DNA of 32,000 nt, taken from Candidatus Methanophagaceae archaeon. Its GTDB lineage: Archaea; Halobacteriota; Syntropharchaeia; Alkanophagales; Methanospirareceae. Shown piece after piece: positions 1 to 30,945 of the stretch. The DNA is taken from the NCBI GenBank assembly GCA_003194425.1, contig PQXB01000001.1, positions 820,444-852,443 on the forward strand, written 5' to 3'. Each line of letters starts with the position of its first letter. Positions within the stretch are counted from its first letter, which is position 1. The notes beneath the pieces are model-generated. The model was given only the letters and a program-made list of their open reading frames with translations, was not told where the DNA came from and did no database searches. A program made the translations under genes and the position numbers.

Positions 1-1689
1 TGATATAATCTTCGTCTCGTGAATCAATTTTAGATTCTGATTTTGTTTTTTGGTTTGGAGAAATATGTCTAACTATAGATTCAAATAAGGATCCAAATGG
101 ATGCTTTCTATCTACTCTATATTTATAAAAAAATTTTTCTATTGTTTTACCTGTATTTTCTATTGGAACTTTACGGAAGTAACTATCTTTCTTGTTCAGA
201 TCGTAATTGAGTTTGGCGTTGAATTTCGTTGAATAGTCTATTGAAAGAGCATAATTAAAAAAATCATTTTCATAAAAAGGAGATAAGAAATATTCATTAT
301 AATTCCTACCAACATAGCAATGATCATTCATATAACCATATATTCGATTTTCTATGACATAACGCTCAAATTGTTTTATATTATCTGTTGAATCATATTT
401 TCCTTTAATTGTTTCATAATTATACTCAATTTCCCTCTTGATGTTGTTTACTATATTTAAAGGCCAATTAAGGCGATTTATCTTTGAGATGTAATAGTCG
501 CTTGGCTTAACCATAGATGAAAACGTTCTCAAAAGGAATAATGTAATTTCATTAGGTAGAAAGTTAGAACTAATTAGCTCCATCTTCCTAAAAATATTTT
601 TAGAGCCACCAATTAAAAAATCAAGTTTTGTAGCTGCCATAATTGTATCACCAACTGTACCTTCTGTGAAGATACTGGAGGGATCAAAAGATTTATGAAA
701 ATCAACTAAATGAAGGTCTCCTTGTAATCTTTTTGTTTCTTGTATATCTATAAGTTGCTCATATTTCTCGGTCAGTTTTTTGAAATTTTTCTCCTTTTGT
801 TTTTCTCGCCCTATGAGTTTTATTTCTACATTTGGATAATTTTTTTTGAGAGCATTGATTAGATGCCCCGCATGATCCTCAGTCGTGTGTGTATAAGTAG
901 TAACTTTTAAGCTTTTTCTTAATAAATGAGCTAATAAATAGCTTGAATCCGTTCCTCCAGAGAAGCATAGAGATATTTTATATCTTTTATTTACTGGATT
1001 AAGCACTTTATCAATTGCATTTAGAAATAAATCCTCAATGTCTTCAAGATACGTTTTGTAATCCACGATTTTATTATCGATGTGGGGTTTATAAAATTTG
1101 TGAGTAAGTTTGTTGTTTTTTGGATTAAATGTATATATTGATAAATTATCTAATTATAGATCGTTTTCCTATTAAGAGTATGTTCAAGACTTAATAATTC
1201 TGCAATTGCCTCTTTACTGAGACTTATATGATTTTCCTTGGCTACTGGGAAAATAAATTTTATGGCTGGTGCCACACAAAAAATATTTCTGGATCTGTGG
1301 TAGTAAAGATCAAAGAGCGTATGGTAAGGTGTTATTATCTGCACAAGTTTCGGAGTTTTAATTACAATATTACCAAAGAAAGGTATTGTCTCAACGAAAT
1401 TTATTCCGTATTTATTATATAATTTTCCTATAAATTTTGCGCCATCATTAATCTCTTTGTCTTTACCTAAAATATAATCATCAAAAAAGATATGTGTGTT
1501 TTCTATTTTTGCATATGGAGTTGGATAAACACCCCAATTGATTAAACCACATAATTCTTTTTTAGAATATTGTTCAAAAATTTGACATTTTGGTTTCCTT
1601 TTTAATACATCTTTTAGAACTTTTTTGATGTATGTTTCTATTTCTTCCGCGTTTACATTGTTATAATAAAAAAGGCCTATATTGCTCAT
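1..1689 (-). pseudogene. Asparagine synthetase-like amidotransferase (AsnB family), apparently frameshifted; C-terminus runs off the window
   Basis: ORF 1150..1719 has a likely start at ATG 1689, with GGTGA 5 nt upstream and an ATGA overlap with the upstream stop. It has the layout of a class-II glutamine amidotransferase domain but begins MSNIG instead of MCGI. A second minus-strand frame is open from 1153 to position 1; it is absent from the ORF track because it has no in-window stop. That frame reads ...NKRYKISLCFSGGTDSSYLLAHLL..., the SGGxDS PP-loop of the AsnB synthetase domain (around 964-947). The two frames meet at TAG 1150-1152. One extra T in TATAATT^AGATAAT would join ...RKTIYN to LDNLSIYTFNP. 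Confidence 0.7.
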
Positions 1690-3018
1690 TCTTTCACCTC
1701 TCTCTGTTGAATATACCACCTATAATAACTCCATCGAGTAATGGAACAAACTGCGCAGCTTATAAAACTTACCCACGCAGCACCCATTGCTCCATATGCC
1801 GGTACTAAAAGAATATTCCCCATCAGATTTGATATACCCATAATAAAACTTGTATTTCGTAACTCAGTGCCCCGGGTGTGGGCGCTTAAAAAATTATTAT
1901 GTGGTAAAGTCAACCCAGAAACTAACCCAGCCAATGCAAGAGGCAATATCAAAGGAACAGTCGGCAAAAAGTTTTCGGTAAATAGCAAAACCACGATAAA
2001 CTTTCCAAATATCACCAAACCAGCAACACAAGCCGCAAGCCATAGAAAATTATAGTAAATAACTTTTTTAGGTATCCTTTTCATATCAACAAATCCTTTA
2101 AATAAACTCCTAGATAAAGCTTGAGAAAGTCCCACCATTGGCGCCGTAATCATCGTCATTGCTAAAGAATAAAATCCCAATTGTGTTGTGTTAACAAAAT
2201 ATGTGATGAAGTGTTGTGTTAACAAAATATGTGATGAAAATTCTGTCTAACTGGTATGTAGACTGGTCTACAATCTGACCTAAATAGAGATGAAATCCAT
2301 ATTCCTTATTCTTTTTCCATATTTCCTTCAAATTTTCTCTTATATTATTGAACAGGGGATGGAACGAATGCATAACAACAAGAACGCTGACAATCGTGCT
2401 GAAGATGCTCAATAATATGAAATGGAAAGGTTCAATTTGGATGATTTTCAAAAGCATCAGTGCTCCTAAAAGGTAAACGGCTGTGGGAATCACACTGAAG
2501 AGAGACAGCCTCTCGATCTTGTTCATACCTCTCCCGACCTGCGGGACTAACATGCCAAATGGCAGAGCAATTAACAGAAAAGAAGAATATCTCAGAATCC
2601 AACCGACATTTGTATTAAAAATATCATCAACAAAAAAACTCAGGAACAGTATAAAAAATGAATAAGATATTCCAATCAAAAAAGCTACAATAACCGAAGC
2701 CCCAGCTAATTCTCTCTCTTTTCTTTCATCTTTTGCCTGCGCAATCAGCAACCCACTCGCACTGAAGAATCCAAAACGAAAGAATAAAACAGTAAAAGAA
2801 GTAATAGTAAAGAAAAATGCTAAAATTCCATATCCTTCCGGACCTAAAACCCTTGTATTAATAATGCCAGTAAAAACACCTAAAAATAAGGCGGCAATCT
2901 GAGAGAGAAATAAGGTAGAAGTTTGCCTTCCAGTTTTCCCCATTAAATCCTTTTTAAATTCATATACTATGCTTTTTGCGTTTACCATCCTGAACCCCAA
3001 ACCATTCTTTATTTTCAC
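1686..3018 (-). pseudogene. MOP/PST-family (Wzx-like) polysaccharide flippase, split by a 28-bp tandem duplication
   Basis: Two multi-TM fragments: 2191..3018 (275 aa) and 1686..2225 (179 aa). Fragment 1 ends ...RIFITYFVNTTLHHIFC*. Fragment 2 begins (TTG)LTQHFITYFVNTTQLGF. The shared FITYFVNTT comes from the duplication 2183-2210 = 2211-2238. The span is 1333 nt; minus 28 it is 1305 nt, or 435 codons in one frame. Start is GTG 3018 (GTGA overlap with the wecC stop) or ATG 2988. Confidence 0.85.
2183..2238. repeat. Perfect 2 x 28-bp tandem duplication (gtgttgtgttaacaaaatatgtgatgaa)
   Basis: Read directly from the sequence. Bases flanking each copy differ, so the repeat is exactly 56 nt. Confidence 0.98.
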
Positions 3019-4268
3019 TGGGACCTTCCATCTCCCAGCAGCTTCACATCAAATCCCGCCTTTCCCCATCTTCCCATATCTAAAATATTTCTACAATCAA
3101 CCACGTTCCGTCTTCTCATCAACCTGAATATCTCCTCCGGCTCAATCTCTTTAAATTCAGAATGATCAGTAATAATCACGATACAATCGCTACCCCCAAC
3201 CGCATCTTCCAAACTTAAAATTTCATATTCAAATGTTTTGACATAAGGGTCATATATCTTAACATTATATCCCTCATTATCAGCCACTTTTATGAACTTC
3301 AACGCAGGCGTCTCCCTCGTATCATCAACATTTCCCTTATATGCGACGCCAAAAACCGTAATCATTGGGTCTCTAACATCTTCTAACATCTCTCTTACAA
3401 TCTGCAGCACATAGTTCAGCATAGAATCGTTGATCTCTCTTGCCAGTGAAATCATCCTGCATTTGGTCGAATTCTCAGTTAAGAACCAAGGGTCAATCGC
3501 AATGCAGTGTCCTCCTACACCCGGACCTGGGTTGAGAATGTTTACCCGTGGGTGCTTGTTCGCTAATTCTATAGCCCCCCTTATATTTATCCCGCTCTCA
3601 TCTGCCATCTGTGCAAACTCGTTAGCTAAAGCAATGTTTGCATCTCTATAAGTATTCTCCATCAACTTTACAAATTCTGCTGTTCTTATGTCAGTTAAAT
3701 ACAACTTTCCCGTGACAAAAGACGAATACAAATCCCTTGCAAGTTCTCCGGATTTTTTATCAAATCCACCGATTATTCTGTCGTTGTGTATCATCTCGTA
3801 GACGGTGTTTCCAGGTATAGCCCTCTCAGGACAATGAACAAAATAAAATTCCCCTACTTTTAATCCTCTCCTCTCCAGTATAGGAATTACCAGTCTTTCA
3901 CTGGTACCTGGGGGGACCGTTGACTCAAGAATTACAAGATTCTCTTTATTCAGGTGAGGGTAAATCATCTCTGCTGCAGATCTTACATATTTCAAATCCG
4001 CAACTTTTACCGCCTTCTCCAGGGGCGTTGGAACTGCAATTAAAAATACATCCGCAGCCTCAACCTCTGTTTTAGCAACAACATTCTTTTTTGTTTTCTC
4101 AAATAAATCATCGATTTCCGGCTCATCAAATGGGCTTTCTCCTCTGTTTATCTTCTCCACAACTTTTTCACTTATGTCAACGCCAATCACTTCATACTGT
4201 TGAGCAAATAGTAACGCGGTTGGCAACCCAATGTAACCTAATCCAAGCACACAGATCTTCATCGTCAT
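3015..4268 (-). CDS. wecC: UDP-N-acetyl-D-mannosamine dehydrogenase (UDP-sugar 6-dehydrogenase family)
   Basis: 418 codons from ATG 4268. The N-terminus MTMKICVLGLGYIGLPTALLFA is a Rossmann GxGxxG. The segment ...ANKHPRVNILNPGPGVGGHCIAIDPWFL matches the catalytic-Cys block of WecC/Cap5O-type dehydrogenases. ATGA overlaps the wecB stop at 4265-4268. The 26-codon extension in the ORF track lies inside wecB and is rejected. Confidence 0.85.
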   Translation of the reverse strand: MTMKICVLGLGYIGLPTALLFAQQYEVIGVDISEKVVEKINRGESPFDEPEIDDLFEKTKKNVVAKTEVEAADVFLIAVPTPLEKAVKVADLKYVRSAAEMIYPHLNKENLVILESTVPPGTSERLVIPILERRGLKVGEFYFVHCPERAIPGNTVYEMIHNDRIIGGFDKKSGELARDLYSSFVTGKLYLTDIRTAEFVKLMENTYRDANIALANEFAQMADESGINIRGAIELANKHPRVNILNPGPGVGGHCIAIDPWFLTENSTKCRMISLAREINDSMLNYVLQIVREMLEDVRDPMITVFGVAYKGNVDDTRETPALKFIKVADNEGYNVKIYDPYVKTFEYEILSLEDAVGGSDCIVIITDHSEFKEIEPEEIFRLMRRRNVVDCRNILDMGRWGKAGFDVKLLGDGRSQ

Positions 4269-5372
4269 TGTTTCCCTCTTCCCCGCTCCTTTAAAATCTT
4301 GATTATCCGCCTCCCAGCTTCGCCGTCTCCAAAAGGATTTTTCCAATTCTTTTCTCTATTATTTATCATTAATTTAGCACATTCTAAAACTTCTTCAGGA
4401 TTTGTTCCAGCTAGGATATTCGCACCCACCTCAAGAGTTTCAGGTCTCTCTGTATTATCTCGCAAAGTAACACAAGGAACCTTCAATACGCAGGACTCTT
4501 CTTGAAGACCTCCGGAATCAGTTAAAACCAACCTTGCATTTGCCTCTAACTGTAGAAAATCCAGATAGCCTGCAGGCTTAACTAACCTTACCCCTTCTGG
4601 AATTTTTAGCCGAAACTCTTCTAACTTTTTCTCTGTTCTCGGATGAATCGGATAAATTATAACAAAGCCAAACTCTTTGTGCACTAAATCCAATCCCTTT
4701 AGAATCTGCCCTAACCTCTTTTTATCGTCTACGTTTTCTTGTCTGTGTGTAGTGACGAGTAAGAATTCCCTACTTTTTAAGTTCAATCGGTCTAAAATCC
4801 TTGATTTCTCTTTGCCTATTTCCAAATTCTGAAAGACCGCGTCTACTACTGTGTTCCCGGTAATGAAAATTTTGTTTGCGTCAATTCCTTCTTTTATTAG
4901 ATTCTCTCTCGACTTTTCAGTCGGTGCGAACAACAAATCCGAAACATGATCAGCTACAACTCTGTTTATTTCCTCTGGCATATTTCTGTCATAACTCCTT
5001 AAACCCGCCTCAATATGCCCCACTTTGATGTGCAACTTCACCGCCGCCAGAGCACCCGCCAATGTTGAGTTCGTGTCTCCGTAAACAAGAACAATCTCGG
5101 GCTTCTCTCTAACCAAAACTTTTTCAATCCGCTTCAGCCCCTCGCCTGTCTGGTAGCCGTGCGAGCCCGAGCCGACGCCGAGATAATAATCAGGCTTCGG
5201 AATCTTCAACCTTCGGAATCTTCAACTCCTCAAAGAATAGTTTTGAGAGGTTGTAGTCGTAGTGCTGCCCTGTGTGTAAGCAGACATTCTTTATTCTTCC
5301 GCTGCTCGCTTTTAAGACTGGTGCTAATTTTATGAACTGCGGTCTGTTTCCAGTTATATGCAGTATTTTCAT
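4265..5372 (-). pseudogene. wecB: UDP-N-acetylglucosamine 2-epimerase (non-hydrolysing), split by a 16-bp tandem duplication
   Basis: The N-terminal fragment 5190..5372 reads MKILHITGNRPQFIKLAPV...HTGQHYDYNLSKLFFEELKIPK. The C-terminal fragment 4265..5209 reads (TTG)KIPKPDYYLGVGSGSHGYQTGE.... Together they make a complete WecB. The span is 1108 nt; minus 16 it is 1092 nt, or 364 codons, reading ...FFEELKIPKPDYYLGVGSGSH.... Confidence 0.9.
5195..5226. repeat. Perfect 2 x 16-bp tandem duplication (cttcggaatcttcaac)
   Basis: Read directly: 5195-5210 = 5211-5226. Flanking bases differ. Confidence 0.98.
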
Positions 5373-5447: not shown

Positions 5448-5636
5448 TCAGTACCTCTTCCTGTAAATCTCATCGTGATGTCCCAAATCGAGGAATCTAA
5501 CCATCTTACCTTCCTCTTCTATTTCAAAGACTAAAAAAAAGGACTTCTCCAAACGAACTCGCCTCAAACCCTTTAAATCATACCTTAACGGTTTGTAATG
5601 GTAGGGATTTTCTATTATCGCTTCTACACTCTTCAT
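5448..5636 (-). CDS. RelE/ParE-like toxin, unusually short (62 aa)
   Basis: The segment ...ENPYHYKPLRYDLKGLRRVRLEKSFFLVFEIEEEGKMVRFLDLGHHDEIY... matches the C-terminal two-thirds of RelE/ParE toxins (nP..g.pL.g.l.g..r.R.g.yR.iy.i.....v.i..i.hR...Y). The usual ~25-aa N-terminal strand and helix are missing. It sits directly downstream of a small acidic ORF. Confidence 0.6.
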   Translation of the reverse strand: MKSVEAIIENPYHYKPLRYDLKGLRRVRLEKSFFLVFEIEEEGKMVRFLDLGHHDEIYRKRY

Positions 5637-5638
5637 TA

Positions 5639-5878
5639 CTACATCGTAGAGTTTTTTAAATCTTCAATATTCGAGAATGTTTCGAAATCTCCTTCTTTCC
5701 TTATCTCCTCTAACTTCTCCAAATACTCCTCTTTTACCTCGTAGAACGCGTCGGTGTGCATTTCAACAAGTGTCTCAAGCATCCCCTCCAACCCTTCTAC
5801 TCTTCCCTTAAGGCTTTTCACATCTTCTAATACCTGCCTCATCATTCCCCTCTCTTCTAGTTCCATCATTTCAAACAC
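5639..5878 (-). CDS. Putative antitoxin partner (small acidic coiled-coil protein)
   Basis: 79-aa E/K-rich ORF ending 2 nt before the toxin ATG, with the junction ATG TAG TAA TGA. Its tail ...IRKEGDFETFSNIEDLKN resembles the ...FEAGRYYTLKTEKDIDKF tail of the antitoxin relic at 20621-20770. Start is GTG 5878 or ATG 5869. The function is inferred from position only. Confidence 0.45.
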   Translation of the reverse strand: MFEMMELEERGMMRQVLEDVKSLKGRVEGLEGMLETLVEMHTDAFYEVKEEYLEKLEEIRKEGDFETFSNIEDLKNSTM

Positions 5879-7180: not shown

Positions 7181-9450
7181 ACCTCCGAGCCACCGTTATC
7201 ATAAATCCTGCTTTTATCGGCAAATACATCCGAATAGTCCGTCAGATTACACTCCTTTGATTCACATAATACTTTCCCTTTTTTTATATTACGATACCCT
7301 AAATAGACATTGCCACCAATATTTTTATGCCCGCAGAACGAGTAAATGGCAATTTCTGGAATGAATGTAACTTCTTCATTATATAATCTCATCCCCCCCC
7401 AGCCATCTACATATATTTTTGGATTATCCCGGTTCATAAAATCTCTTAACCAGCTCGCACTGTAACTCTCCTGATCGTGAATGTACAATGTATTGTAATT
7501 ATCTCCATCAGTGCTTAAGGTTATCTCTCGTGGAATACCGAATATCGCAAACATTGCTCCCGTGACGCACAAGAATAGCGGTATCAGAACCAGTAATATA
7601 ATTAAATACACCCCCGGAGTCGCCAGAGTCTGTTCAGGTTTGTTGTGAGTTTGTTTAGACTTGTTATTTCGTAAGCGAGTTGAGCGAGTTAGAAAAAGTT
7701 GATATAATTTTCCTAAAGTTTCTTTCAGCATCAAACATCCTAAAACGAACACAACAGATAAAATCACCAACAGCATCGAGTATGTGCGCTTTATGTCATA
7801 CCCCTCTGAAACATAAGGAAGTGCAACCATAATCACAAGTATTCCAGTACACATCAATGTCAGCACTAAATGTTCAATTGAAAATTTTGTCTTTAAAAAA
7901 TCTGGTTTCAAATGCTCTTCTTCTCGCTCCGGAATCGCGATCATACTCTTATATTTCGTGAGCATACTGATAACTCCAGCACCTATGAGAAGGAATGAAA
8001 TCCATGTAACCACAAACTCTATTTTATAAGGAATAGCGGTCCTAATATTTTCGCCGTACAGAATACCCTCTCCAAGCATTGCCTGTGTTCTTTCGCATCT
8101 CGATTCAAAGAGAAAGAAGTTATGCAAGTTCTTAAAAGTTGCGTCTACGAACCCCACTCCTTCATTAAACGCTTCTTCTGTTACCTGCGAATACCAGAAG
8201 AAGACTATGCCAAAGAATAGCAGAACCAGCGTTAAACTTATGCTCTTCTTAATTGTGAACCGTTTTGACAATATCTCGATTAAGAACCAGCTAAAAAGCA
8301 TTATAAAGAAGAAGATATAGGTGGTTGCATAATGGGAGACGATGCACGACGCCATAAAGACGATGAATAAAATCCTCTTTCTCAGCGGATCTATCCCATC
8401 ACTTAAGAAGACTAACATCGCAAATCCAAAGAATAAAAACGCAGTATTTGTGCGCGGGCTGTATGCAGTATCTAAAAAAATATCTTGAGATATGAAGAAA
8501 AATGAAGCCAAAAACGCGTATAATTCTCCTACATATTTCTTTGATATTAAAAATACTATCAATGGTGCAACTGAAAGCAGTAATGAATAAAAAATTTTAT
8601 AAAAATATACGCTATTACTTACATTCAAAAAAGATTGGTATATTGAAGGTAATAATGAAATGGCTAAACATGCATCTAAAGTGGAATGTCCAAGAACATA
8701 CCAATGCAAATTACTAAATATCACTCTGAAAAAATGATATTCCTTATGTACATCCATCCCTAAGATATAATTCGATCTTAATGACAACAGTAGTAAAAGA
8801 GAGATGCTAATTAAAAATATTACAACAGGATAAAGTCTTTTTGGAAATTTGTGATTGAAAATGCAGACAAAAACGACATAAATTGGAATTAAAAATAACA
8901 AGAACACCAAAATTGAATTGTTTTTTGTAATATTCATCAAATGCATTCCAAATACGCTCAATCCTGGAAATAAGATTGGAACGATTAAAAATGCCTTCTC
9001 TGCTGCAGTTAAATGAATATTCTCTAACGTTACTACATTTTCACCGTTTATTTTATATCCAAGAATAGACAGCAAAATCAAGGCACTACTAAACGATACC
9101 ACCATCGAGACTGTTGAGAGTGGTGTTAAATAGCCAAGACTGTAATATAATTTATCTATGATTAGTCCGAAAAATGTTAGGAATGAAATACTGAGTCCTA
9201 CACTCAACACAACTTTTTCTAAAATTTCTATATTGTTTAATTTTAGAATAACAAGAATAAGTGCGCCGGGTAGTATGGTGAAACAGAGAAATCCGAAAAT
9301 CTGTCTCAAAAAAGGGATGTTTAAAAGTATTGTGATGTCTGTTAAGAGGATTATTGTTATTATAACTGCAAACCATTCTTTAGCTCCAAACTTCAATTTT
9401 ATTTTGTAATAAAAACCTTTTTTCATAGTTTTCCCTGTATCCAAAAACAT
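7171..9450 (-). CDS. 759-aa polytopic membrane protein; candidate glycan polymerase or GT-C-like enzyme (DUF2206-like from memory)
   Basis: Long intact ORF with a GGAGG RBS before ATG 9450. There are more than 15 hydrophobic segments over ~650 aa, then a ~110-aa soluble C-terminus. No WWDYG AglB motif is present. The functional call rests on context only. Confidence 0.6.
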   Translation of the reverse strand: MFLDTGKTMKKGFYYKIKLKFGAKEWFAVIITIILLTDITILLNIPFLRQIFGFLCFTILPGALILVILKLNNIEILEKVVLSVGLSISFLTFFGLIIDKLYYSLGYLTPLSTVSMVVSFSSALILLSILGYKINGENVVTLENIHLTAAEKAFLIVPILFPGLSVFGMHLMNITKNNSILVFLLFLIPIYVVFVCIFNHKFPKRLYPVVIFLISISLLLLLSLRSNYILGMDVHKEYHFFRVIFSNLHWYVLGHSTLDACLAISLLPSIYQSFLNVSNSVYFYKIFYSLLLSVAPLIVFLISKKYVGELYAFLASFFFISQDIFLDTAYSPRTNTAFLFFGFAMLVFLSDGIDPLRKRILFIVFMASCIVSHYATTYIFFFIMLFSWFLIEILSKRFTIKKSISLTLVLLFFGIVFFWYSQVTEEAFNEGVGFVDATFKNLHNFFLFESRCERTQAMLGEGILYGENIRTAIPYKIEFVVTWISFLLIGAGVISMLTKYKSMIAIPEREEEHLKPDFLKTKFSIEHLVLTLMCTGILVIMVALPYVSEGYDIKRTYSMLLVILSVVFVLGCLMLKETLGKLYQLFLTRSTRLRNNKSKQTHNKPEQTLATPGVYLIILLVLIPLFLCVTGAMFAIFGIPREITLSTDGDNYNTLYIHDQESYSASWLRDFMNRDNPKIYVDGWGGMRLYNEEVTFIPEIAIYSFCGHKNIGGNVYLGYRNIKKGKVLCESKECNLTDYSDVFADKSRIYDNGGSEVWR

Positions 9451-11915: not shown

Positions 11916-13039
11916 AGTGCCTCCTTCAAAGAGTCCACAACATACTTCGCCTGTTCCTCGGTCATCGTTGCAAACACCGGCAAGCAGACCTGCCTCTTGC
12001 AAACATCCTCAGCAACCGGAAACACCCCCTCTGTAAAACCATACAAATCCTTGAATATCGGCTGCAAGTGGCAGGGCAGTTCGTAAACCTCTCCGCTTAA
12101 ACCTACCTCATATTTCTCTTTAAGTTCTCTTTTAAGCTCCGCCCTCTCAATCTCAATGCCCTCGTCCAGCATAACCACATACTTGTAGTAGTTCGACTTC
12201 ACTTCAGGAGGGATTTTTATCGGCGTTACACCCCCTCCTCCCCTCTCATTCAGTTCTTCATCGTATATTTTTGCGATCTTTCTTCTATCCGCGATGAACG
12301 CCTCAAGCCGAGCAAACTGCGACAGACCTACCGCGGCGTGAATCTCACTCAGCCGCCAGTTGTAGCCCATCTCTGTATGCACATTGCCAAAGAATCCTGC
12401 TTTGCCCTGGTCTCTGAAGACTAACGCCCGCTCGTAAATCTTTTTGTCGTCTGTCGTGATCATTCCACCCTCGCCGGATGTCATCACTTTCGTTGGGTAA
12501 AAGGAGAACGCGGCTGCCTCTCCGAACCCTCCTGCCATTTTTCCGTCCAGCGTGCTCCCGTGTGCGTGCGCGGCATCCTCGATTAGAAAAAGATTGTGGT
12601 CTTCGCATATTTCCTGAATCTCTTTTATCTGCGGTGGCACGACGCCTCCAATATGCACAACGATAACACCTTTTGTATCTTTTTTTATATTCTCCTTAAC
12701 GCTCTCAGGGTCAATGCAAAGGTTCTCGGTAACATCCGAAAATATGACTTCTCCACCTGCGTGTACGACCGATGCAGGCGTCGCAAAGAAGGTGTTCGTT
12801 GGCACAATCACCGAATGCCCTTTCACATCTAACGCCCTCAAAGGTATTTCCAACGCACTCGTTCCGCTGTTCACCGCAACTGCATATTTCGTGCCCACAT
12901 ACGCTGCGAATCGCTCCTCAAATTCTCTCGTGTATTTCCCAAGCGTCAGTTGCCCGCTTTCGAGAATCTCGTCTACTTGCTTCAACAAATCCTTCCTTTC
13001 TTCCTCAGGAAAGTATATCTTCGCTGCTGGTATTTTCAT
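11909..13039 (-). CDS. DegT/DnrJ/EryC1/StrS-family PLP-dependent sugar aminotransferase
   Basis: MKIPAAKIYFPEEERKDLLKQVDEILESGQLTLGKYTREFEERFA...NSGTSALE...DAAHAHG...SFYPTKVMTSGEGG is the canonical family layout. Start ATG 13039 is preferred over ATG 13093, whose 18 extra codons are the 15-bp polypurine repeat. Confidence 0.9.
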   Translation of the reverse strand: MKIPAAKIYFPEEERKDLLKQVDEILESGQLTLGKYTREFEERFAAYVGTKYAVAVNSGTSALEIPLRALDVKGHSVIVPTNTFFATPASVVHAGGEVIFSDVTENLCIDPESVKENIKKDTKGVIVVHIGGVVPPQIKEIQEICEDHNLFLIEDAAHAHGSTLDGKMAGGFGEAAAFSFYPTKVMTSGEGGMITTDDKKIYERALVFRDQGKAGFFGNVHTEMGYNWRLSEIHAAVGLSQFARLEAFIADRRKIAKIYDEELNERGGGGVTPIKIPPEVKSNYYKYVVMLDEGIEIERAELKRELKEKYEVGLSGEVYELPCHLQPIFKDLYGFTEGVFPVAEDVCKRQVCLPVFATMTEEQAKYVVDSLKEALC

Positions 13040-13511
13040 TTTCTCTCCTCTCTCTTCCTCTCCTCTCTCTTTCTCTACTCTCTCTTTCGCCATTCTCCAA
13101 CTCTAAAACCGCCGCTATTTCTTCTATAAAATCATAAAAGTCTTGAAGGTTCTCTTTTAATATCTCAAATCCAAGTTCATCATCTATTTTCCCATATCTG
13201 TGCACGACTATGTTTCTAAAGCCTTTCATCAGCCTGATCTTCTCTTTTATTTCCTCACTCAAAATATTGTTCTTAACCAGATTCTCTACGATCTCTTCAT
13301 CGTCACCTGGAATTCCAAGTTCAAGGTCTGTGTTAATGACGGCACAAATATCAAAAACATCTTCGATTGCAAATTCTGTCCTCTTGTAGATTCCGTCTTT
13401 TAACAATCCCATCTCTGAGAATTCCTCAAAAGTTTCTGGCAAATGCTCCTCTACCAACCCAACACACTCCTCTATTTCTTTTATCTTTGTTCTGATAACC
13501 GCCCTCCTCAT
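13005..13511 (-). CDS. HEPN-domain (DUF86) toxin of an MNT-HEPN pair
   Basis: The Rx4H motif is present in ...MKGFRNIVVHRYGKID. ATGA overlaps the MNT stop at 13508-13511. The C-terminal tail (...ENGERESRERERRGRERRENENTSSEDILS) reads through the polypurine repeat and overlaps the aminotransferase start, so it is probably not native. Confidence 0.85.
   Translation of the reverse strand: MRRAVIRTKIKEIEECVGLVEEHLPETFEEFSEMGLLKDGIYKRTEFAIEDVFDICAVINTDLELGIPGDDEEIVENLVKNNILSEEIKEKIRLMKGFRNIVVHRYGKIDDELGFEILKENLQDFYDFIEEIAAVLELENGERESRERERRGRERRENENTSSEDILS
13016..13083. repeat. Direct repeat copy A (68 bp) flanking the MNT-HEPN cassette
   Basis: tatcttcgctgctggtattttcattttctctcctctctcttcctctcctctctct... 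is identical to copy B for the first 55 nt. It contains the ATG and first 8 codons (MKIPAAKI) plus 15-bp pyrimidine-strand units. Confidence 0.95.
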
Positions 13512-13924
13512 TTTATCGCCTTTTCCCTGATATAATCGTAAAATCTGTATTTAAACGCTTCAAAATCCTTTATCGTCTCGGTAGCCGTTTCATATAAAAA
13601 CCGCTTATCCTCGCAGTAAATTTCTCTTCCCTTCAAGACCTCAACTCTTACATAAAGAGGGAGTTGCTGAAAAATCTGAATATCATAAACATCATCGAAG
13701 AGTTCTGAAAGGAGTTTTAACCTGAATCTTGAGGACTCCTTTTGTCCTCCCTCATAATATATGCAGAAGTCAATATCTGAGCCCTCAACCATCTGCCCCC
13801 TTGCTGCTGAGCCATACAAGAAGATGAATTTCACCTTCTCAAATCCCGCTACATTCTTTATTCTTTGCAGCATAATCTTACTATCTTTTTCAAGGTGGCG
13901 TATCTTCGCTGCTGGTATTTTCAT
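13508..13924 (-). CDS. Minimal nucleotidyltransferase (MNT) antitoxin of an MNT-HEPN pair
   Basis: ...FIFLYGSAARGQMVEGSDIDFCIY is the GSx10-12[DE]xD pol-beta NTase motif. The first 8 codons, MKIPAAKI, are identical to the aminotransferase start and are part of a duplicated segment. The native start may be the internal MLQRIKN (13873). Confidence 0.85.
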   Translation of the reverse strand: MKIPAAKIRHLEKDSKIMLQRIKNVAGFEKVKFIFLYGSAARGQMVEGSDIDFCIYYEGGQKESSRFRLKLLSELFDDVYDIQIFQQLPLYVRVEVLKGREIYCEDKRFLYETATETIKDFEAFKYRFYDYIREKAIK

Positions 13925-13983
13925 TTTCTCTCCTCTCTCTTCCTCTCCTCTCTCTTCCTCTCCTCTCTCTTTCTCTATTCTCT
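13901..13983. repeat. Direct repeat copy B (83 bp; one extra 15-bp unit)
   Basis: Same sequence as copy A plus an extra tcctctcctctctct unit, then 13 nt with 1 mismatch. It contains the stop codon of the upstream methyltransferase (13975-13977). Confidence 0.95.
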
Positions 13984-17717: not shown

Positions 17718-19478
17718 TCATTCCACCTCCTTCAAATAATACTCCCTCCTCCGCCTCTCGACAACCTCACCGATCAAATACTTTATAAGCCTCGGATTCA
17801 ACATCTTCACCATCTGCACACCCGCACTTCTTCTAAACCTCCGTTCACCCATCTTCTCTAAAATCTCTTTAGCCACCGTTGACGCACTGTATCGGTGTGG
17901 CATCTTGAACTCATTTTCCAGAACTCGTCCTGCCTCTCTTTTCTCGTAGCCCAATCTCCCCAAAACATACTCAAGTTTTTCAGGAATTACACCGTGTGCC
18001 GCTTCGTGAAGAGAGGCGGTAATTGAAACGAACGATTTTGCAGCCGCAGTGATTTTGTTTTCCTTCAATACCGCAACGAACTCGTCAATCTCGCCCTCGT
18101 TCATCCTCGCGAGCGTGTAGAGAAAAGAGTAATATTCGCCAAGCAGATACAAATATTCTGTGAGTGAATGAATAATCACTATTCCCAAATCGAGTTCAGG
18201 CGTCGGCGTCTTAACCCTTACCTCCGCCCCTGACTGTATTTTTCTGTTAATTACGCGTCCTCTGAACTTGTCCTTGTCCATATAAATGAGATGACTCAAC
18301 TCCAACTGCCACTGCAGGTCTATAATTATCTTCGCATCTCGGTCAATGAGGTCGGGGATTGTCGAGCCGCTCACTACTGCTCCTTCTTTGTCTTTGTAGC
18401 CTGCCTCGTGAAAGATTTCGTAGGATTTCTTGTAGACGTCGTAATCGTCCAGAATTAGAAGGTCAACATCGCCCGGAACCGCAGCGTAAGGTCTGATCGT
18501 CTTGAACACGACATATTCGATGCCCGAAGCATCAAGAGTTCTCGAAATTTTTCCCACCCCTTCCAAAAACTTTAAATACCTCTCCTGCTCTTCATCGTAT
18601 TTATCTCTTAGTTTATCCAATCTTCCCTGCTGCTTGAGTGCCTTCAGGTAGAGCAGCGAGATTTTGTTCTTGACTGCGAGGTCGTAGAGTTCAAGAGACT
18701 CGGTACCGTTAACGAAAGGCGGTTTGTTTGGTAGAAAAGGAGAGCCTATCGTTTTTAGAAGTTTCATTGTTTGGCTCGAGTTTTTAGTGTTTTTAGATTC
18801 AAATACCTCTTCTCGCACCCGCTCTTTCAGTTCTGCTAAATCTTTACTCCCGTCCAATCTCTTCATTTTATATTCCTTACCAATCTCTAAATAAACCTTC
18901 CTCCGCTCCTTTAAATAGCTTAGGGACGGCGTGTCTTCTTTTCTCTGAAACGCCGTCTCCTCTGGCAAATCAATCAGAAAAACCAAGTCCGGCTCAGGTG
19001 CAATCCGAAAACAGTTCTCAATCAAACCCCTCAAATGGCTAAAATCAGCCTCCGCCTCCTCTCTCGGAATATCATTCATCACCGTGTCATAAACATACCT
19101 GTCGCAAACAACCGTCCTTCCGAGCCTCTTCGGAAGAATTATCTTGGCAAGGAGCTGGAGAGAATAGTCGAACAGCAAATATTTCTGATAAACTGACGAC
19201 ACTAACGAAAACCTCCTCACCGCATCCCTCTTGGCACTTGAATAATCTTCGTACTCTCTTATGTTCCGCCCGTGCAGAAACAGAAACTTCCCAATCTCCA
19301 ATGCAGGTCTCGCCAGAAAGGGCTTGTATCTGCCGTAAACATAATTGCATTTCACCCCCCTCCTCTTCATCTCCGCAGCCAAAAACCTTGCCAGCGTCGT
19401 CTTGCCAGCACCGTCCATTCCAGTAAAACAAATCAACTTAGCCTTTGCCCTTCTCATTTTCCTTGACGAGTTTTTCAT
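17718..19478 (-). CDS. Fusion protein: thymidylate-kinase-like P-loop domain + NTP_transf_5-like (uncharacterised pol-beta superfamily) nucleotidyltransferase domain
   Basis: 586 aa. The N-terminal domain has KLICFTGMDGAGKTTLARFL (P-loop) ...DRYVYDT...FLIDLPEETAFQR. The C-terminal domain has ...VVFKTIRPYAAVPGDVDLLILDD...VVERRRREYY. The two halves align with the separate genes 24519..25025 and 22409..23503. Start is ATG 19478 or ATG 19457. Confidence 0.8.
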   Translation of the reverse strand: MKNSSRKMRRAKAKLICFTGMDGAGKTTLARFLAAEMKRRGVKCNYVYGRYKPFLARPALEIGKFLFLHGRNIREYEDYSSAKRDAVRRFSLVSSVYQKYLLFDYSLQLLAKIILPKRLGRTVVCDRYVYDTVMNDIPREEAEADFSHLRGLIENCFRIAPEPDLVFLIDLPEETAFQRKEDTPSLSYLKERRKVYLEIGKEYKMKRLDGSKDLAELKERVREEVFESKNTKNSSQTMKLLKTIGSPFLPNKPPFVNGTESLELYDLAVKNKISLLYLKALKQQGRLDKLRDKYDEEQERYLKFLEGVGKISRTLDASGIEYVVFKTIRPYAAVPGDVDLLILDDYDVYKKSYEIFHEAGYKDKEGAVVSGSTIPDLIDRDAKIIIDLQWQLELSHLIYMDKDKFRGRVINRKIQSGAEVRVKTPTPELDLGIVIIHSLTEYLYLLGEYYSFLYTLARMNEGEIDEFVAVLKENKITAAAKSFVSITASLHEAAHGVIPEKLEYVLGRLGYEKREAGRVLENEFKMPHRYSASTVAKEILEKMGERRFRRSAGVQMVKMLNPRLIKYLIGEVVERRRREYYLKEVE

Positions 19479-20508
19479 AAATCACCTCCAGCCTCTTCAC
19501 CACATTCTCCCACGAATACGGCAACACCTTCTCCCTGGTTTTAATCTCCGCCCCGTTTTCAATCTCCTTCACAGCCTTAACAAAATCCCCCTCCCCTTCA
19601 GCAAAGACCAAGCCCTCACCTTCCACGAAAACTCTTGGCAGTGCTCCAAATTTAGTGGTGAGAACAGGCAAATTACACGACATCGCCTCTAACACAGAGA
19701 GCGGCATTTCTATTGCATTTATCTTATTCTCCGGCGGCGTTGGAAAGACATAACAGTCTGAAAGTGCATAAACCTCCTCCACGTTCTTAAAATAGTTCAC
19801 CCAAATCTTGCAACCACTCTCTTTGAGACTTCGGTAGAGACGCTTTTCAATCCCTGTCGACCTGCTCCCGATAATCAGAACCTGTCCCTCTTTTCTCCTC
19901 GCAATCTCCTTAAAGATTTCAATTCCCCGCCCCTCTTTTATCGAGCCCACATGCAGAATCACAAAATCCCCTTTCTCTTTCCCGTTCTCCACTTTCTCTT
20001 TCTCTACGCCATATTTCGCTCGCAACGCCTCTTTAACGCCGTCAGAAACCGGAACAAACCTCTTGAGATCCACACCACCCGGTAAAAACTCAGTCTTGCA
20101 CCCCAATCCCTTAAACAGCCTCTCACTCTCTTCCGACTGCGTTAGCACCAAATCAGGTTTGAAGAGAGAAAAGATTTTCTTTGATAAGCGGAAAGGGGCG
20201 GGATGAGTTGCAGACACTACCATCTTCACTTTCGTCTCCTCCTTCGCATTCACACCCTTGCAATAAAACGCAAGCCCCTTCAAAATCATCAAACTTTTAA
20301 GAGACGGGCCATGAACATAATGAATTATTTGAGGTTTAAACGCTCTAATCTCCTTCCAAAAACTTTTAAAAAATATCTTTTTAATATTTAAAGGTAAAAC
20401 TTGGTGGTGCTTTGAGAGTTCCTCGCTCAAATAAAAACTCGTCTTCCGCATTCCTTCTTCTAAATCTCCTGAATATTCTCCTATTAAACATATTCTCATA
20501 CTTTTCAT
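19438..20508 (-). CDS. GT4-family glycosyltransferase
   Basis: 356 aa. ...YVFPTPPENKINAIEMPLSVLEAMSCNLPVLTTKFGALPRVFVEGEGLVF is a Glycos_transf_1-type C-lobe. Confidence 0.8.
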   Translation of the reverse strand: MKSMRICLIGEYSGDLEEGMRKTSFYLSEELSKHHQVLPLNIKKIFFKSFWKEIRAFKPQIIHYVHGPSLKSLMILKGLAFYCKGVNAKEETKVKMVVSATHPAPFRLSKKIFSLFKPDLVLTQSEESERLFKGLGCKTEFLPGGVDLKRFVPVSDGVKEALRAKYGVEKEKVENGKEKGDFVILHVGSIKEGRGIEIFKEIARRKEGQVLIIGSRSTGIEKRLYRSLKESGCKIWVNYFKNVEEVYALSDCYVFPTPPENKINAIEMPLSVLEAMSCNLPVLTTKFGALPRVFVEGEGLVFAEGEGDFVKAVKEIENGAEIKTREKVLPYSWENVVKRLEVIYEKLVKENEKGKG

Positions 20509-20770: not shown

Positions 20771-21955
20771 TTAAATATTCAAAACCTTCTCATAAACCTT
20801 CTCCGTCTCTTCTGCAATCCGCTCCCACGAATAATCTTCAACTTTCTTCCTGCCATTTCTCCCCATCCTTCTTCTTACTTCCTCGTTCTCCAATAAATAA
20901 ATTATCGCTTCTGCCAACGCTTCCTCGTCCTTTGGCGGAACTAACACACCATTCTCTCCATTTTTTACCACATCAGGAACACCGCCAATCTTAGACGCCA
21001 CAATCGGGACGCTACAAGCCATCGCCTCTAAATTCACGATTCCAAAGATTTCATGTTTCATCACCGAAGGCAAACAGAAAACATCTGCCGAGTTGTAATA
21101 AAACGGTTTCAAACGCTCCTCGACAAATCCTGCAAATTTTACATATTTTCCAAGACCTAACTTTCTCGACAATGCCTCAAGTTCTTCTTTCATTCTACCA
21201 CTTCCAACGAAGACTAATTTAGTATTTGGAATGTTTTTTATTATTTTTGGCATCGCTTTCAACAAAACATCAGGTCCCTTGTGCGGGCTGAGTGTTCCAA
21301 CAAATAATATAATCCTGCTGTCAATAGGCAAATCTAACTTCTCCCTGCATTCTTCTTTTGAATAATGAAGGTCAAAATCCTCTATATTTATCCCGTTTGG
21401 AATTACAACAATCTTATCTCTGTATTTCCCTAAAAACTGTGATTCATTGATGTAATATTCTGAAGGCGAGATTATGACATCTGCATAAGATAAAATTTTG
21501 TCAAGAAGAAATTTGTTGTAAAAATAAACGCTAATTCTTCGAGCAAAACCACCCATATTTTCTTCTAAGTCCCCATGATATGTAACCACAAGCGGAAGTT
21601 TCTTCTTTTTTGCACATCTTAGCCCTGCAATGTCTCCTATAGGAACAGAAATATGAGTATGGATGAGGTCAGTAGGATATTTTACAGAATTTTTTAGAAG
21701 TCCAAATGAAAATCTTCCGCTTGCAACGCTGAGATTGGTTCCGTATCTGTATATTTTTATATTTTTGTGTTCTTCAATTTCATCTTTAGAATCGGCGGAT
21801 GTAGTAAAAATCGATATTTCGTGTCCTTCGTGTCCTTTTTCTGCTAAATAAGATGCTAAATTCTCTGCAGCAGCTTCGGCACCACGAACAGTATATTTTT
21901 CATCAACTATTTTGCTTCTGTAGGGAAAATGAGTGATAAAATAATTTATTTTCAT
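20771..21955 (-). CDS. GT4-family glycosyltransferase
   Basis: 394 aa. ...CLPSVMKHEIFGIVNLEAMACSVPIVASKIGGVPDVVKNGENGVLVPP. Confidence 0.85.
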   Translation of the reverse strand: MKINYFITHFPYRSKIVDEKYTVRGAEAAAENLASYLAEKGHEGHEISIFTTSADSKDEIEEHKNIKIYRYGTNLSVASGRFSFGLLKNSVKYPTDLIHTHISVPIGDIAGLRCAKKKKLPLVVTYHGDLEENMGGFARRISVYFYNKFLLDKILSYADVIISPSEYYINESQFLGKYRDKIVVIPNGINIEDFDLHYSKEECREKLDLPIDSRIILFVGTLSPHKGPDVLLKAMPKIIKNIPNTKLVFVGSGRMKEELEALSRKLGLGKYVKFAGFVEERLKPFYYNSADVFCLPSVMKHEIFGIVNLEAMACSVPIVASKIGGVPDVVKNGENGVLVPPKDEEALAEAIIYLLENEEVRRRMGRNGRKKVEDYSWERIAEETEKVYEKVLNI

Positions 21956-22377
21956 ATTCCCTCTTCATAAACTTTTTCAACCAAACAAACTATCTTTCCC
22001 CAATCATACCATTTTGCGCTTTCAATACATTTCCTTTTCATTTCTCTTTTCCTATTCAATGTTACCAATATTCCTTTCCTAATTTCTTTTTCTGAAAGCT
22101 CACATACAATCCCATTCTCATTTCTTATAAAATCACATACTGCATTCCTTTTATGATTCACTGTAACAACCGGCAATCCACATGCATTCGCCTCTAACGC
22201 AACAATCCCAAATCCTTCTCTTGTCGAAGGCAGGATAAATATCTCAGATGACTTCATATATGAGATCACATCATCATAATCTTCTAAAAAGCCTACAAAC
22301 TTAATGTTATCCTCTAATCTCAAATCATAAACAGCACCAGAAAGAAGTTTTATCAACTTCACCGTTCCATCCCTCAC
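21952..22377 (-). pseudogene. 5'-truncated GT4 glycosyltransferase (C-terminal ~140 aa only)
   Basis: ...FILPSTREGFGIVALEANACGLPVVTV... is the C-lobe of a GT4 enzyme. The frame is closed by a stop at 22384-22386 and opens only with GTG 22377. The ~220-aa N-terminal lobe is absent. It still has an ATGA overlap with the downstream GT4 gene. Confidence 0.7.
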
Positions 22378-23565: not shown

Positions 23566-24328
23566 TTAAAAGTGCGTTGACAATCCCCTTTTTTGACATA
23601 CTTCTAGCACATCTGGATGGAACTCCTGAGCCTGAAACAGGAATGTCCCTCGAACATAGCCAGCCAACCAGCCCCAAAAACATCGTCCAAATGGACCCAT
23701 TTTTTTCAGCCACCGTCCTAACCAAAAACTTGGCGAATCAAAATTAGAGCGAGCCGCCTTCTGAATAGTCCCTCGAAGGTGCCCTATGTATCGGAAACCA
23801 TTTAACTCGAATGTTTTGATCCAAACTGCTCTGCTGTGGTCATTAATGTGTTCGACATCAATCTGTATCCTCAATGTGCGCCACCACCATCTTGCTTCGA
23901 AAGGGGGGGTGGGCGTCATAATAAACGCAATTCCTCCGGGCTTCAAAACTCTATACGTCTCTGAAATTAGTTTGCCAGGCCTCTGCAAATGTTGTAATAT
24001 TTGTTGTGCTATTACTAAATCAAATTGTTTTTCACTAAAGGGAAGAGGTTCAAAATCAATATCTACCTGACTAAGGTATCCTCTAACTGATTCTCTGGCA
24101 TGGAGAAGGGCATTTTTGGAAATATCAACACCATAAGCTTCGATATTCGATGATCTAAGCGCATGAACAAGCTCTCCGGTATTACAAGCCAATATCCAAT
24201 GCTGTACCTACTGGGAATCTTTGAACCAAATCTCTTGCTATCAAGTTAAAGAAAGGATTGTCTTTTTGCACAGGACTGAATGTTCCTTCCTTTTCGAAAA
24301 GGCCTTTGAGCGGATTCGTTTCTGGCAT
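23566..24328 (-). pseudogene. Class I SAM-dependent methyltransferase with a +1 frameshift inside motif I
   Basis: AGGAG, then 7 nt, then ATG 24328 opens MPETNPLKGLFEKEGTF...FPVGTALDIGL*. The track ORF 23566..24192 continues (TTG)ACNTGELVHAL...VLKPGGIAFI. The span is 763 nt = 3n+1. Removing one T at 24186-24187 gives ALDIGCNTGEL, a canonical motif I. Confidence 0.8.
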
Positions 24329-24518: not shown

Positions 24519-25025
24519 TTACCTTTGGTATGCTATTTCTTCTGGTAAATCAACTAAAAAAGCGGTGTCCGGCGTTGGAAATAAAGACAAAATCTTATCC
24601 AAAAACTTCTTAACCTCTTCTTGGGAATAATTGAAGTCCACAGATAAATCTGTAACAATTGTATCATAGATGTAGCGATCACAGATGATATTTTTACCAA
24701 AAAGCAGTGGAAGTTTAATTTTGAAAAGAATTTGGATGAAATAGTCAAACAATAAAAGATGTTGATAAAACTTCGCTAAAAGAGGGTGCTTTTTTGAGGT
24801 GTTCTTTTTTGTATTGGAATATTCAGAATAATCTCTGGAATAAGCTTTATTACTGAGAAATAATAATTCCCCTACGAGCATAGCAGGTCTTAAGACAATT
24901 GGAATATAGCGGTTATATACATAACTCGCTTTGATGCCTCTCTTTTGCATTGTGCCAACTAATGCTCTTGTAAGCGTCGTTTTTCCTGACCCGTCCATTC
25001 CAGTAAAGCAAATAAATACACCCAT
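24519..25025 (-). CDS. Thymidylate-kinase-like P-loop protein (stand-alone paralog of the N-terminal half of 17718..19478), C-terminally truncated
   Basis: MGVFICFTGMDGSGKTTLTRAL...CDRYIYDT...FLVDLPEEIAYQR* is colinear with the fusion protein. Start ATG 25025 is preferred over TTG 25043. The missing C-terminal ~50 residues are still encoded out of frame at 24519-24364. Confidence 0.75.
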   Translation of the reverse strand: MGVFICFTGMDGSGKTTLTRALVGTMQKRGIKASYVYNRYIPIVLRPAMLVGELLFLSNKAYSRDYSEYSNTKKNTSKKHPLLAKFYQHLLLFDYFIQILFKIKLPLLFGKNIICDRYIYDTIVTDLSVDFNYSQEEVKKFLDKILSLFPTPDTAFLVDLPEEIAYQR

Positions 25026-25174
25026 ATTATTCTTCGGATTCAATACTTGGACGTGGCAACATAAAGTTAATCCGCTTTGCAGGTATTTGAAACATGAAGG
25101 CTATATTGAAAAGAACGTTCAAATCTAACATCTCTCCCACTGTTCCAGGATTCTTTGCTCCTCCCTTCTTCTTT

Positions 25175-30056: not shown

Positions 30057-30119
30057 TTCCTTCGTCCGTTTTGTATTACTTTTTAATTAATTTTATTATT
30101 TAACTACGCTTGGTTTAAA

Positions 30120-30191
30120 CTAAAGTAATGTAATCTAAAGTAATGTAATCTAAAGTAATGTAATCTAAAAGGTAATCTAAAGCAATGTAAT
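30120..30191 (+). repeat. 15-bp tandem array (ctaaagtaatgtaat x3 perfect, plus a 12-nt and a 15-nt degenerate unit) ending on the rnp3 start codon
   Basis: Perfect units are 30120-30134, 30135-30149 and 30150-30164. Then come ctaaaaggtaat (30165-30176) and ctaaagcaatgtaat (30177-30191). The rnp3 ATG is 30190-30192. Confidence 0.97.
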
Positions 30192-30945
30192 GCTCGACTT
30201 CTTTGACCTCAGCCTGCACTTGCGCCCACGCCCAGAGACCGAGACCGAATCGTCTGCGGAAGAATTGATCAAAACAGCGAAGAGGTTCGGGTACGCTGGC
30301 GTAGCAGTAACGAACCACAACGACTACGCGGAAATCGGAGCGGGTGCAGGAGAGAGTTCGAATTTCGCCTACAAAGGCATCGAGATAAGGGCTGATTCGG
30401 TCGCTGTGCTGAAAAGGAAAATAAAAATTCACTACGGCAGAGTGGCGGTCTTGGCGGTTCACGGCGGCGATGAAAAGATAAACGAGGCGGCGTTGCAGGA
30501 CTACCGCGTGGATATTTTGGCGCACCCCTGCGGCGAATTTGGGAGGGGAAAAGGGAAAGGGAGGGGAAAAGGGAAAGGGAGGGGAAAAGGGAAAGGAGGA
30601 GGGTTAAACCACGTGCTGGTCCGCTACGCTGCCGAGAACGGCGTTGCGCTAGACTTCAACATGAACGCGATAATTCAGAGTAGGGGGAGAGGGGAGAGGG
30701 CGCGAGTTCTTCGGAAAATGCGGGAGAATTTGAAACTCGTGCGCAAATACGACGCCCTCCCGGTGCTAACCAGCCACGCAGAAACGGTCTACGATTTAAG
30801 AGCCCCGCGGGAAATGGTTGCGCTGGCGGGTTTGTTTGGAATGACGAGAGAGGAGGCGGTGCGGGCGTTGAGCGAGGTTCCGCGGGGGATTTTGGAGAAG
30901 CGGTGGAAGAGGTGGAAGAAGGGGCGGGAGGTGGAGGTTTTGTGA
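30190..30945 (+). CDS. rnp3: Ribonuclease P protein component 3 (Rpp30 homolog)
   Basis: MLDFFDLSLHL...AKRFGYAGVAVTNHNDY...VLAVHGGDEKINEAA...VDILAHP...NGVALDFNMNAI is the Rpp30 TIM-barrel/PHP-like pattern. It is followed by Pop5 with a GTGA overlap. It contains a GRGKGK x3 insert. Confidence 0.85.
   Translation: MLDFFDLSLHLRPRPETETESSAEELIKTAKRFGYAGVAVTNHNDYAEIGAGAGESSNFAYKGIEIRADSVAVLKRKIKIHYGRVAVLAVHGGDEKINEAALQDYRVDILAHPCGEFGRGKGKGRGKGKGRGKGKGGGLNHVLVRYAAENGVALDFNMNAIIQSRGRGERARVLRKMRENLKLVRKYDALPVLTSHAETVYDLRAPREMVALAGLFGMTREEAVRALSEVPRGILEKRWKRWKKGREVEVL
30541..30603 (+). repeat. Pure polypurine tract: 18-bp unit gggaggggaaaagggaaa x3 plus ggaggaggg, in frame inside rnp3
   Basis: Units are 30541-30558, 30559-30576 and 30577-30594, all identical. 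There are 63 consecutive purines. It encodes GRGKGKGRGKGKGRGKGKGGG. Confidence 0.97.

Follow-up and report, generated by a model that had tools for sequence, protein, structure and literature searches.

A natural 28-bp tandem duplication splits a predicted polysaccharide flippase gene in a mosaic ANME-1 glycan cluster

Results

A perfect 28-bp duplication divides a predicted flippase gene

The DNA analysed in this work (the window, a whole stretch of 32 kb) belongs to a 1.19-Mb contig of a metagenome-assembled genome of Candidatus Methanophagaceae archaeon (ANME-1), an uncultured methane oxidiser, and our subject is a minus-strand gene for a predicted polysaccharide flippase that is split by a short tandem duplication. 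The duplication comprises two identical 28-mers lying head to tail at 2183-2210 and 2211-2238. The flanking bases on both sides interrupt the period, and the repeat therefore has exactly 2.0 copies, a perfect 2 x 28 bp. Even a search that tolerated three mismatches placed the 28-mer at no other site in the window, and it had no match in 100 dinucleotide-preserving shuffles; none is expected by chance. The two copies and the open reading frames (ORFs) around them are as follows.

2211..2238, minus strand: first copy along the coding strand (TTCATCACATATTTTGTTAACACAACAC), in frame and translated as FITYFVNTT
2183..2210, minus strand: second copy along the coding strand, entered one base out of frame and translated as LHHIFC before a stop
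2191..3018, minus strand: N-terminal ORF of the flippase, ending in FITYFVNTTLHHIFC and a stop, six codons into the second copy
2191..2988, minus strand: N-terminal flippase fragment counted from the conserved ATG, about 265 aa
1686..2225, minus strand: C-terminal flippase fragment, which re-reads FITYFVNTTQLGFYSL

The duplication shifts the flippase frame by +1, and in the public record the two pieces stand as two unrelated hypothetical proteins. The N-terminal fragment is NCBI PXF51574.1 (locus tag C4B55_04165), called as 275 aa from the GTG at 3018, and the C-terminal fragment is the separately annotated PXF51573.1, called as 157 aa from an internal ATG. Deletion of one copy in silico yielded an ORF of 1305 nt, which from the GTG at 3018 comprises 434 codons and a stop; relatives share a conserved start at the ATG at 2988, from which the rebuilt flippase has 424 aa. 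An earlier note on this DNA had described a perfect repeat of exactly 2 x 28 bp, an upstream fragment that stops six codons into the second copy, a downstream fragment that re-reads FITYFVNTT, and a single ORF after removal of one copy. The period-breaking flanks, the mismatch-tolerant scan, the ORF translations and the in silico deletion bear out this description. The junction shows no microhomology, so the two copies cannot shift in register.

The rebuilt gene resembles polysaccharide flippases and has no other disabling lesion

Profile searches with the rebuilt protein gave matches to Pfam Polysacc_synt (PF01943; 69.4 bits, cutoff 28.2, profile 3-267/274) and Polysacc_synt_3 (PF13440; 55.9 bits, cutoff 23, profile 3-293/293), both of which exceed the gathering score and span the duplication junction. 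Residues 31-417 also align with the NCBIfam model 'MOP flippase family protein' and with TuaB, below the equivalog cutoffs of both, and a database search found many intact flippase homologues of 414-433 aa. Among the GTDB species representatives, a flippase protein scan returned only distant flippases (Anaerolineales, Thermoplasmata and Odinarchaeota) and the 28-mer had no match; a search of solved structures by sequence with the rebuilt flippase gave no match either. A crude hydropathy scan indicated about seven hydrophobic segments ahead of residue 206 and more beyond 260, with a hydrophilic loop at 207-250 between them, which places the duplication (residues 251-259) just past the hydrophilic central loop. 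The predicted flippase is located in a glycan island with wecB, wecC, many glycosyltransferases and a DUF2206 membrane protein. The archaeal lipid carrier is dolichol phosphate. Judged by its sequence, the rebuilt gene is predicted to encode a MOP-superfamily polysaccharide flippase ('Wzx-type'), as the earlier note had proposed, with full-length matches to both Pfam families and full-length alignment with intact flippases.

An intact natural allele was also found. The protein P0129 (424 aa, contig L016) is 99.3% identical to the rebuilt protein over 424 aa, from which it differs by three substitutions only, with no further stop or frameshift, and it shares with the window both the C-terminal sequence type and an extra Met codon. 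Because only these three substitutions separate the two proteins, the duplication is the sole disabling lesion of the flippase gene, which agrees with the earlier claim that nothing else splits it.

The duplication is real and derived

We then asked of the available assemblies how the locus looks elsewhere. A Logan assembly of the run SRR6664617, made with a different assembler, matches the window over 5.5 kb with 100% identity and contains both the 28-bp duplication and a 16-bp duplication in the neighbouring wecB gene (below). The 28-bp duplication is also present in MEGAHIT k141 contigs from other European Nucleotide Archive (ENA) assemblies, L002 (ERZ27245762) and L021 (ERZ27227317), where it is carried on single-nucleotide polymorphism (SNP) backgrounds unlike that of the window. 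In these two contigs the junction and the nearest distinguishing variants fall inside one 141-mer, so their linkage is supported at the read level.

In contrast to this two-copy state, the exact 28-mer is single-copy in the related contigs L003, L004, L005, L006, L007 and L016, and it is single-copy with point variants in L015, L017 and L020. In L003, L004 and L015-L017, where the flanks were aligned, they are identical to those of the window. Single-copy alleles with identical flanks indicate that the two-copy state is derived and arose in a one-step event, as had been suggested before from the window alone. These results demonstrate that the 28-bp duplication is real and derived, and that it segregates naturally on at least three sequence backgrounds beside intact alleles. 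A literature search by run, locus-tag and protein accessions returned nothing relevant.

An assembly or scaffolding artefact, for example overlapping contig ends that were joined unmerged, would be a natural suspicion here, given that the source is a metagenome-assembled genome, that end-to-end joins can yield perfect short duplications, and that three such duplications of differing length occur in one window. However, both coding duplications recur in the independent Logan assembly of the raw run, an intergenic 18-bp duplication recurs in two runs (the Logan assemblies of SRR6664617 and SRR6664622), and the MEGAHIT contigs hold the 28-bp duplication on different haplotypes with junction and variants within one 141-mer. 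We therefore give this explanation a vanishingly small chance and regard an assembly artefact as excluded for practical purposes; the recurrence in the Logan assembly and in two MEGAHIT contigs also answers one of the two objections that the earlier note had raised against its own reading of the duplication.

Two further genes of the same cluster carry frameshifting lesions

The genes next to the flippase form an operon-like block with it, in which wecB lies two genes upstream. The features of this block are listed below.

4265..5372, minus strand: wecB-like UDP-GlcNAc 2-epimerase gene, split by a perfect out-of-frame 2 x 16 bp duplication
5195-5226, minus strand: the 16-bp tandem duplication in wecB, unit GTTGAAGATTCCGAAG on the coding strand
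3015..4268, minus strand: wecC-like UDP-ManNAc dehydrogenase gene, intact (417 aa), between the two broken genes
1..1719, minus strand: distant asparagine-synthase-like gene, directly downstream of the flippase, with its 3' end beyond the window

With one 16-bp copy removed, wecB encodes an intact protein of 363 aa that matches Epimerase_2 at full length (E = 2e-119). This rebuilt WecB aligns to the intact L003 gene with no gap at the junction, its residues 1-120 are identical to those of the intact 359-aa protein P0132, and the 16-bp unit is single-copy in intact P0132 and in the contigs L022 and L023. The third lesion is found in the asparagine-synthase-like gene, which is intact and encodes 612 aa in L015; relative to L015, the window has a 13-bp deletion at about 1153-1158 that shifts the frame, which then stops at 1150-1152. 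Such a deletion is irreversible. Thus, three frameshifting indels lie within 5.4 kb of the window genome (in the flippase, wecB and the asparagine-synthase-like gene), and several independent disabling lesions are observed in adjoining pathway genes, as in a decaying cluster. In L016, where the flippase is intact, the downstream asparagine-synthase-like gene has a TGG-to-TAG nonsense codon.

DNA hairpins were considered as the cause of the duplication end points and rejected. At the 28-bp site the z values were -1.4 and -0.9, which are not significant; at the 16-bp wecB site z was -2.7, yet the stems miss the end points of the duplication. Furthermore, fragments of 310 aa with the same start residue (P0134, P0136 and P0138) had raised the suspicion that the 16-bp wecB duplication occurs in other samples. 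This was ruled out in L022 and L023, which have one copy of the unit and owe the fragment to a deletion of about 190 bp at the 5' end of the gene.

Several other features of this region were recorded. Directly upstream of wecB are a ParE-like small toxin gene and its upstream 79-aa partner (5448..5878), and the deletion of about 190 bp in L022/L023 joins the end of the toxin gene to the interior of wecB. Three apparent gene fragments lie further along the window: the C-terminal part of a GT1 glycosyltransferase (21952..22377), a methyltransferase apparently without its N-terminus (23566..24192), and the N-terminal part of a thymidylate-kinase-like domain (24519..25043), of which a full-length paralogue is at 17718..19478.

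Related populations break the flippase in other ways and share a mosaic locus

The contigs bearing other flippase lesions that we compared are 95-99% identical to the window. The flippase gene has lost one base in a T run in L015, has gained one in an A run in L017 and carries an 11-bp deletion in L020, and these lesions are independent of the 28-bp duplication. In L022 and L023, the deletion of about 190 bp mentioned above takes off the start of one of two tandem wecB paralogues. Comparison of the related loci had been proposed in the earlier note, and it thus yields single-copy alleles and intact flippase alleles as well as alleles broken by other means.

The locus itself is a patchwork. Identity with L003/L004 (95-97%) stops abruptly inside the flippase at about 1914-1930, and the last 80 or so flippase codons (from about 1930 to the stop) and everything downstream are of a different sequence type from L003/L004. 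This break within the flippase indicates that the gene is mosaic, with a recombination breakpoint inside it. The wecB gene of the window is chimeric as well: its residues 1-120 are of the upstream paralogue type (P0132), while the rest is of the downstream paralogue type (L003, L022). Because L022 retains both wecB paralogues in tandem, the window wecB was probably fused by unequal recombination.

Over the shared part of wecB and wecC, the window is 99.3-99.8% identical to these related loci. The substitutions private to the window lineage in wecB/wecC are 7 nonsynonymous and 3 synonymous, and those in the flippase are 2-3 nonsynonymous and none synonymous, together 9-10 to 3, compared with 4 nonsynonymous and 3 synonymous in three other lineages combined. 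This pattern is compatible with relaxed constraint, in counts too small for significance.

Perfect tandem arrays are dense in the window

Six perfect tandem arrays of period 10 or more were found in the 32-kb window, whereas unrelated loci totalling about 105 kb contained none, and shuffles likewise gave none. Apart from the two coding duplications described above, the following arrays were located.

30541-30596, plus strand: perfect in-frame 18-bp x3.1 array in the RNase P p30 gene (30190..30945), encoding (GRGKGK)3 in a loop
20554-20589: intergenic perfect 18-bp x2 duplication, 46 bp upstream of the ATG of a glycosyltransferase gene (19438..20508)

The closest p30 homologue, P0144 (98% identical), has one unit fewer and its units are imperfect, and more distant ANME-1 p30 homologues are without the repeat. 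For the intergenic 18-bp duplication, no relatives lacking it, by which its polarity could be set, were retrieved. A 10-bp repeat in wecC is conserved in L003/L004, which marks it as native coding sequence. The window also contains GA-rich 15-mer arrays. Outside the window, L003 has a perfect in-frame 15-bp x2.1 duplication in an ABC-2-type permease gene (8031-8062). These data, from a small sample, suggest that this lineage often mutates by short tandem duplication; duplications that keep the frame would persist in essential genes, and those that break it in dispensable ones.

Longer or less perfect repeats were seen too. A 119-nt direct repeat (12983-13101 and 13868-13986; 84% identical, 885 bp apart) contains GA-rich 15-mer arrays and brackets an MNT/HepT toxin-antitoxin pair (13005..13924), an arrangement that resembles a cassette insertion or duplication in the glycan island. 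At 30116-30191, directly upstream of the RNase P p30 gene, an imperfect 15-bp x5.3 array (TAATCTAAAGTAATG) sits where the glycan island, which is AT-rich (GC about 0.3-0.45), gives way to a GC-rich housekeeping segment (0.52-0.58). Neither an Rfam scan nor a tRNA scan of the window found anything.

Discussion

A probable null allele in a decaying or counter-selected glycan island

A question raised by these findings is whether the split flippase is simply broken or is one state of a switch. We consider it likely that the duplication is a natural null allele, that it stems from a mutation spectrum prone to duplication in a mosaic glycan island that is decaying or counter-selected, and that it is not part of a working switch. 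According to this explanation, a single spontaneous 28-bp head-to-tail duplication would have arisen in the flippase gene of an ANME-1 surface-glycan cluster, and the +1 shift would truncate the flippase after its central loop, between the transporter halves, to give a null allele. Together, the three frameshifting indels in the wecB-wecC-flippase-amidotransferase block would then turn the pathway off, at least partly irreversibly. Two drivers may be involved: a mutation spectrum of the lineage that is rich in short perfect tandem duplications, and either relaxed selection on the mosaic glycan island or selection favouring loss. Such selection could take the form of a second hit in the early-step gene wecB that makes a blocked flippase less costly. 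What we infer from this pattern is in which order the events took place, what their selective cause was and by which molecular route the duplication formed.

Several points weigh against this explanation. The retrieval of broken alleles was biased, since protein clusters built around fragments were followed, and for this reason no allele frequency is given here, although the independence of the lesions is still clear. The nonsynonymous excess comes from a dozen or so sites and, compared with the other lineages, does not reach significance. The gene that carries the 13-bp deletion may be dispensable. Since two of the three lesions are perfect tandem duplications, reversion of these two is possible in principle. 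The assembly-level evidence is compatible with a one-copy minority that may exist in the same sample. Finally, the presence of the duplication on several backgrounds with its copies still identical would fit frequent gain and loss too.

Alternative explanations

These points lead to the alternative of reversible phase variation, in which the duplication is an OFF state and precise loss of one copy by slippage toggles the surface glycan. The duplication is of a suitable type, a non-microsatellite tandem duplication inside an ORF that causes a frameshift; the copies are perfect and exact loss of one gives a full-length ORF, so that precise reversion appears mechanistically possible from the sequence. 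Both states occur naturally on closely related backgrounds, a second gene of the cluster (wecB) has been struck by the same kind of lesion, and there is precedent in capsule genes (Waite 2001, 2003, as cited in PMC11163986 and PMC4022640). In addition, all four combinations are found of the duplication with a SNP 32 bp upstream and with a +GAT codon 57 bp downstream, and likewise with more distant SNPs; the window's own background has T at 2270, +GAT at 2152-2154 and G at 2110. Recurrent origin or reversion was considered as a reading of these four-gamete conflicts and not accepted, because SNP pairs only 26 bp apart conflict alike; ordinary recombination, or homoplasy at the short GAT repeat, suffices to explain the mixed backgrounds. 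Reversion of the flippase duplication would moreover leave the wecB duplication and the adjacent 13-bp deletion in place, and with two further frameshifts in the same cluster it probably would not restore the pathway by itself. Restoration needs two separate reversions and the 13-bp deletion cannot revert, which makes a working ON/OFF switch the less likely reading. The other inactive alleles of this flippase are not duplications, a pattern better explained by loss of function through whatever route than by a dedicated switch, and neither the exact revertant flippase nor the exact revertant WecB occurs in a collection of 15 billion proteins that includes assemblies of the same runs. Phase variation of this kind is therefore unlikely in our view. 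Slightly less likely still is its widest form, in which the ANME-1 surface-glycan pathway as a whole would be a reversible ON/OFF polymorphism, in which short perfect tandem duplications, unusually common in this lineage and here seen in wecB and the flippase, would create OFF states that precise loss erases, possibly under virus pressure. If true, it would mean that an uncultured archaeon has a mechanism of phase variation, and it would account for the occurrence of the same duplication on several backgrounds beside intact alleles. The earlier suggestion of an OFF state rather than a dead gene thus finds support in part only: single-copy alleles do exist in relatives, but the 16-bp wecB duplication, the 13-bp deletion and the non-duplication lesions elsewhere speak against it.

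Two other mechanisms would change the meaning of the duplication and seem much more remote. One is that the gene is attenuated rather than null through leaky expression, by a low-level +1 ribosomal slip on TTT_T or a ribosomal hop between matched codons of the two copies, which would yield some full-length flippase. The shifted frame of the second copy reads ATA TTT TGT TAA, in which TTT_T precedes the stop, and re-pairing of tRNA-Phe by +1 on the four-T run would be predicted to restore the frame with a 9-aa insertion; however, the slip site does not adjoin the stop codon, no stimulatory element and no significant local structure were identified, and the site shows no sign of sequence conservation, being a recent duplication of ordinary coding sequence, so that we can give this mechanism hardly any credence. 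The other is the footprint of a mobile element, a target-site duplication left side by side after excision, for which the junction without microhomology is what staggered-cut fill-in would produce, in a region with toxin-antitoxin cassettes and repeat-flanked insertions. Against it, no related contig has an insert between the copies, duplications of 16, 18 and 28 bp do not fit the fixed target-site length of one element, and the in-frame array of more than two copies in RNase P p30 points to replication-type duplication; a footprint is accordingly very improbable. Overall, the null allele in a decaying or counter-selected island is the explanation that we retain.

Significance and comparison with known systems

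Mutations of this kind, in which a tandem duplication shifts the frame and so creates a fresh pseudogene, are ordinary, and the present one is a new example in ANME-1. Of more note than the duplication itself is the pattern of recurrent flippase inactivation together with the density of perfect tandem duplications. In natural ANME-1 populations this flippase has been broken in at least five independent ways, a second pathway gene of the window genome is broken by a like event, and the window is unusually rich in perfect tandem repeats of 15-28 bp. Taken together, these observations suggest that loss or variation of surface glycan is common in these uncultured methane oxidisers.

The closest parallel is the pneumococcal capsule, where spontaneous duplications in the genes cap3A, cap8E (wchA) and tts turn expression OFF and their precise loss turns it ON (Waite 2001, 2003; as related in PMC11163986 and PMC4022640). 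As in those genes, the flippase carries a short non-microsatellite frameshifting duplication in a surface-polysaccharide ORF, and exact loss of a copy would restore the gene. In pneumococcus, according to the same accounts, reversion was measured in culture and the OFF variants had duplications in one key gene. In contrast, the archaeon studied here is uncultured, two of its genes are duplicated and a third has an irreversible deletion, and the other natural null alleles of its flippase are simple indels.

The pairing of lesions also recalls Wzy-type pathways, in which a block of transport or polymerisation selects suppressors in early steps (Xayarath & Yother 2007, as cited in PMC4022640). 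Here too the flippase lesion has a companion within its cluster, in an upstream gene for precursor synthesis (wecB); unlike the Wzx/Wzy suppressors, the pairing is read from sequence.

With respect to the mutations themselves, the spontaneous 'large indel' class in pyrE of Sulfolobus acidocaldarius includes gene-inactivating tandem duplications of tens of bases (PMC7785828). That is a crenarchaeal laboratory spectrum, whereas the present figure is a repeat density in one 32-kb ANME-1 window and not a rate. ANME-1 genomes are known to have highly variable hotspots (PMC13385816), and the region described here resembles them in being mosaic, variable, rich in toxin-antitoxin genes and different between close strains. 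That study dropped structural variants of 50 bp or less, so that, unlike the variants in its catalogue, events of the 28-bp size fall under its size cut-off; our results suggest that small tandem duplications below this limit are a notable source of glycan variation in ANME-1.

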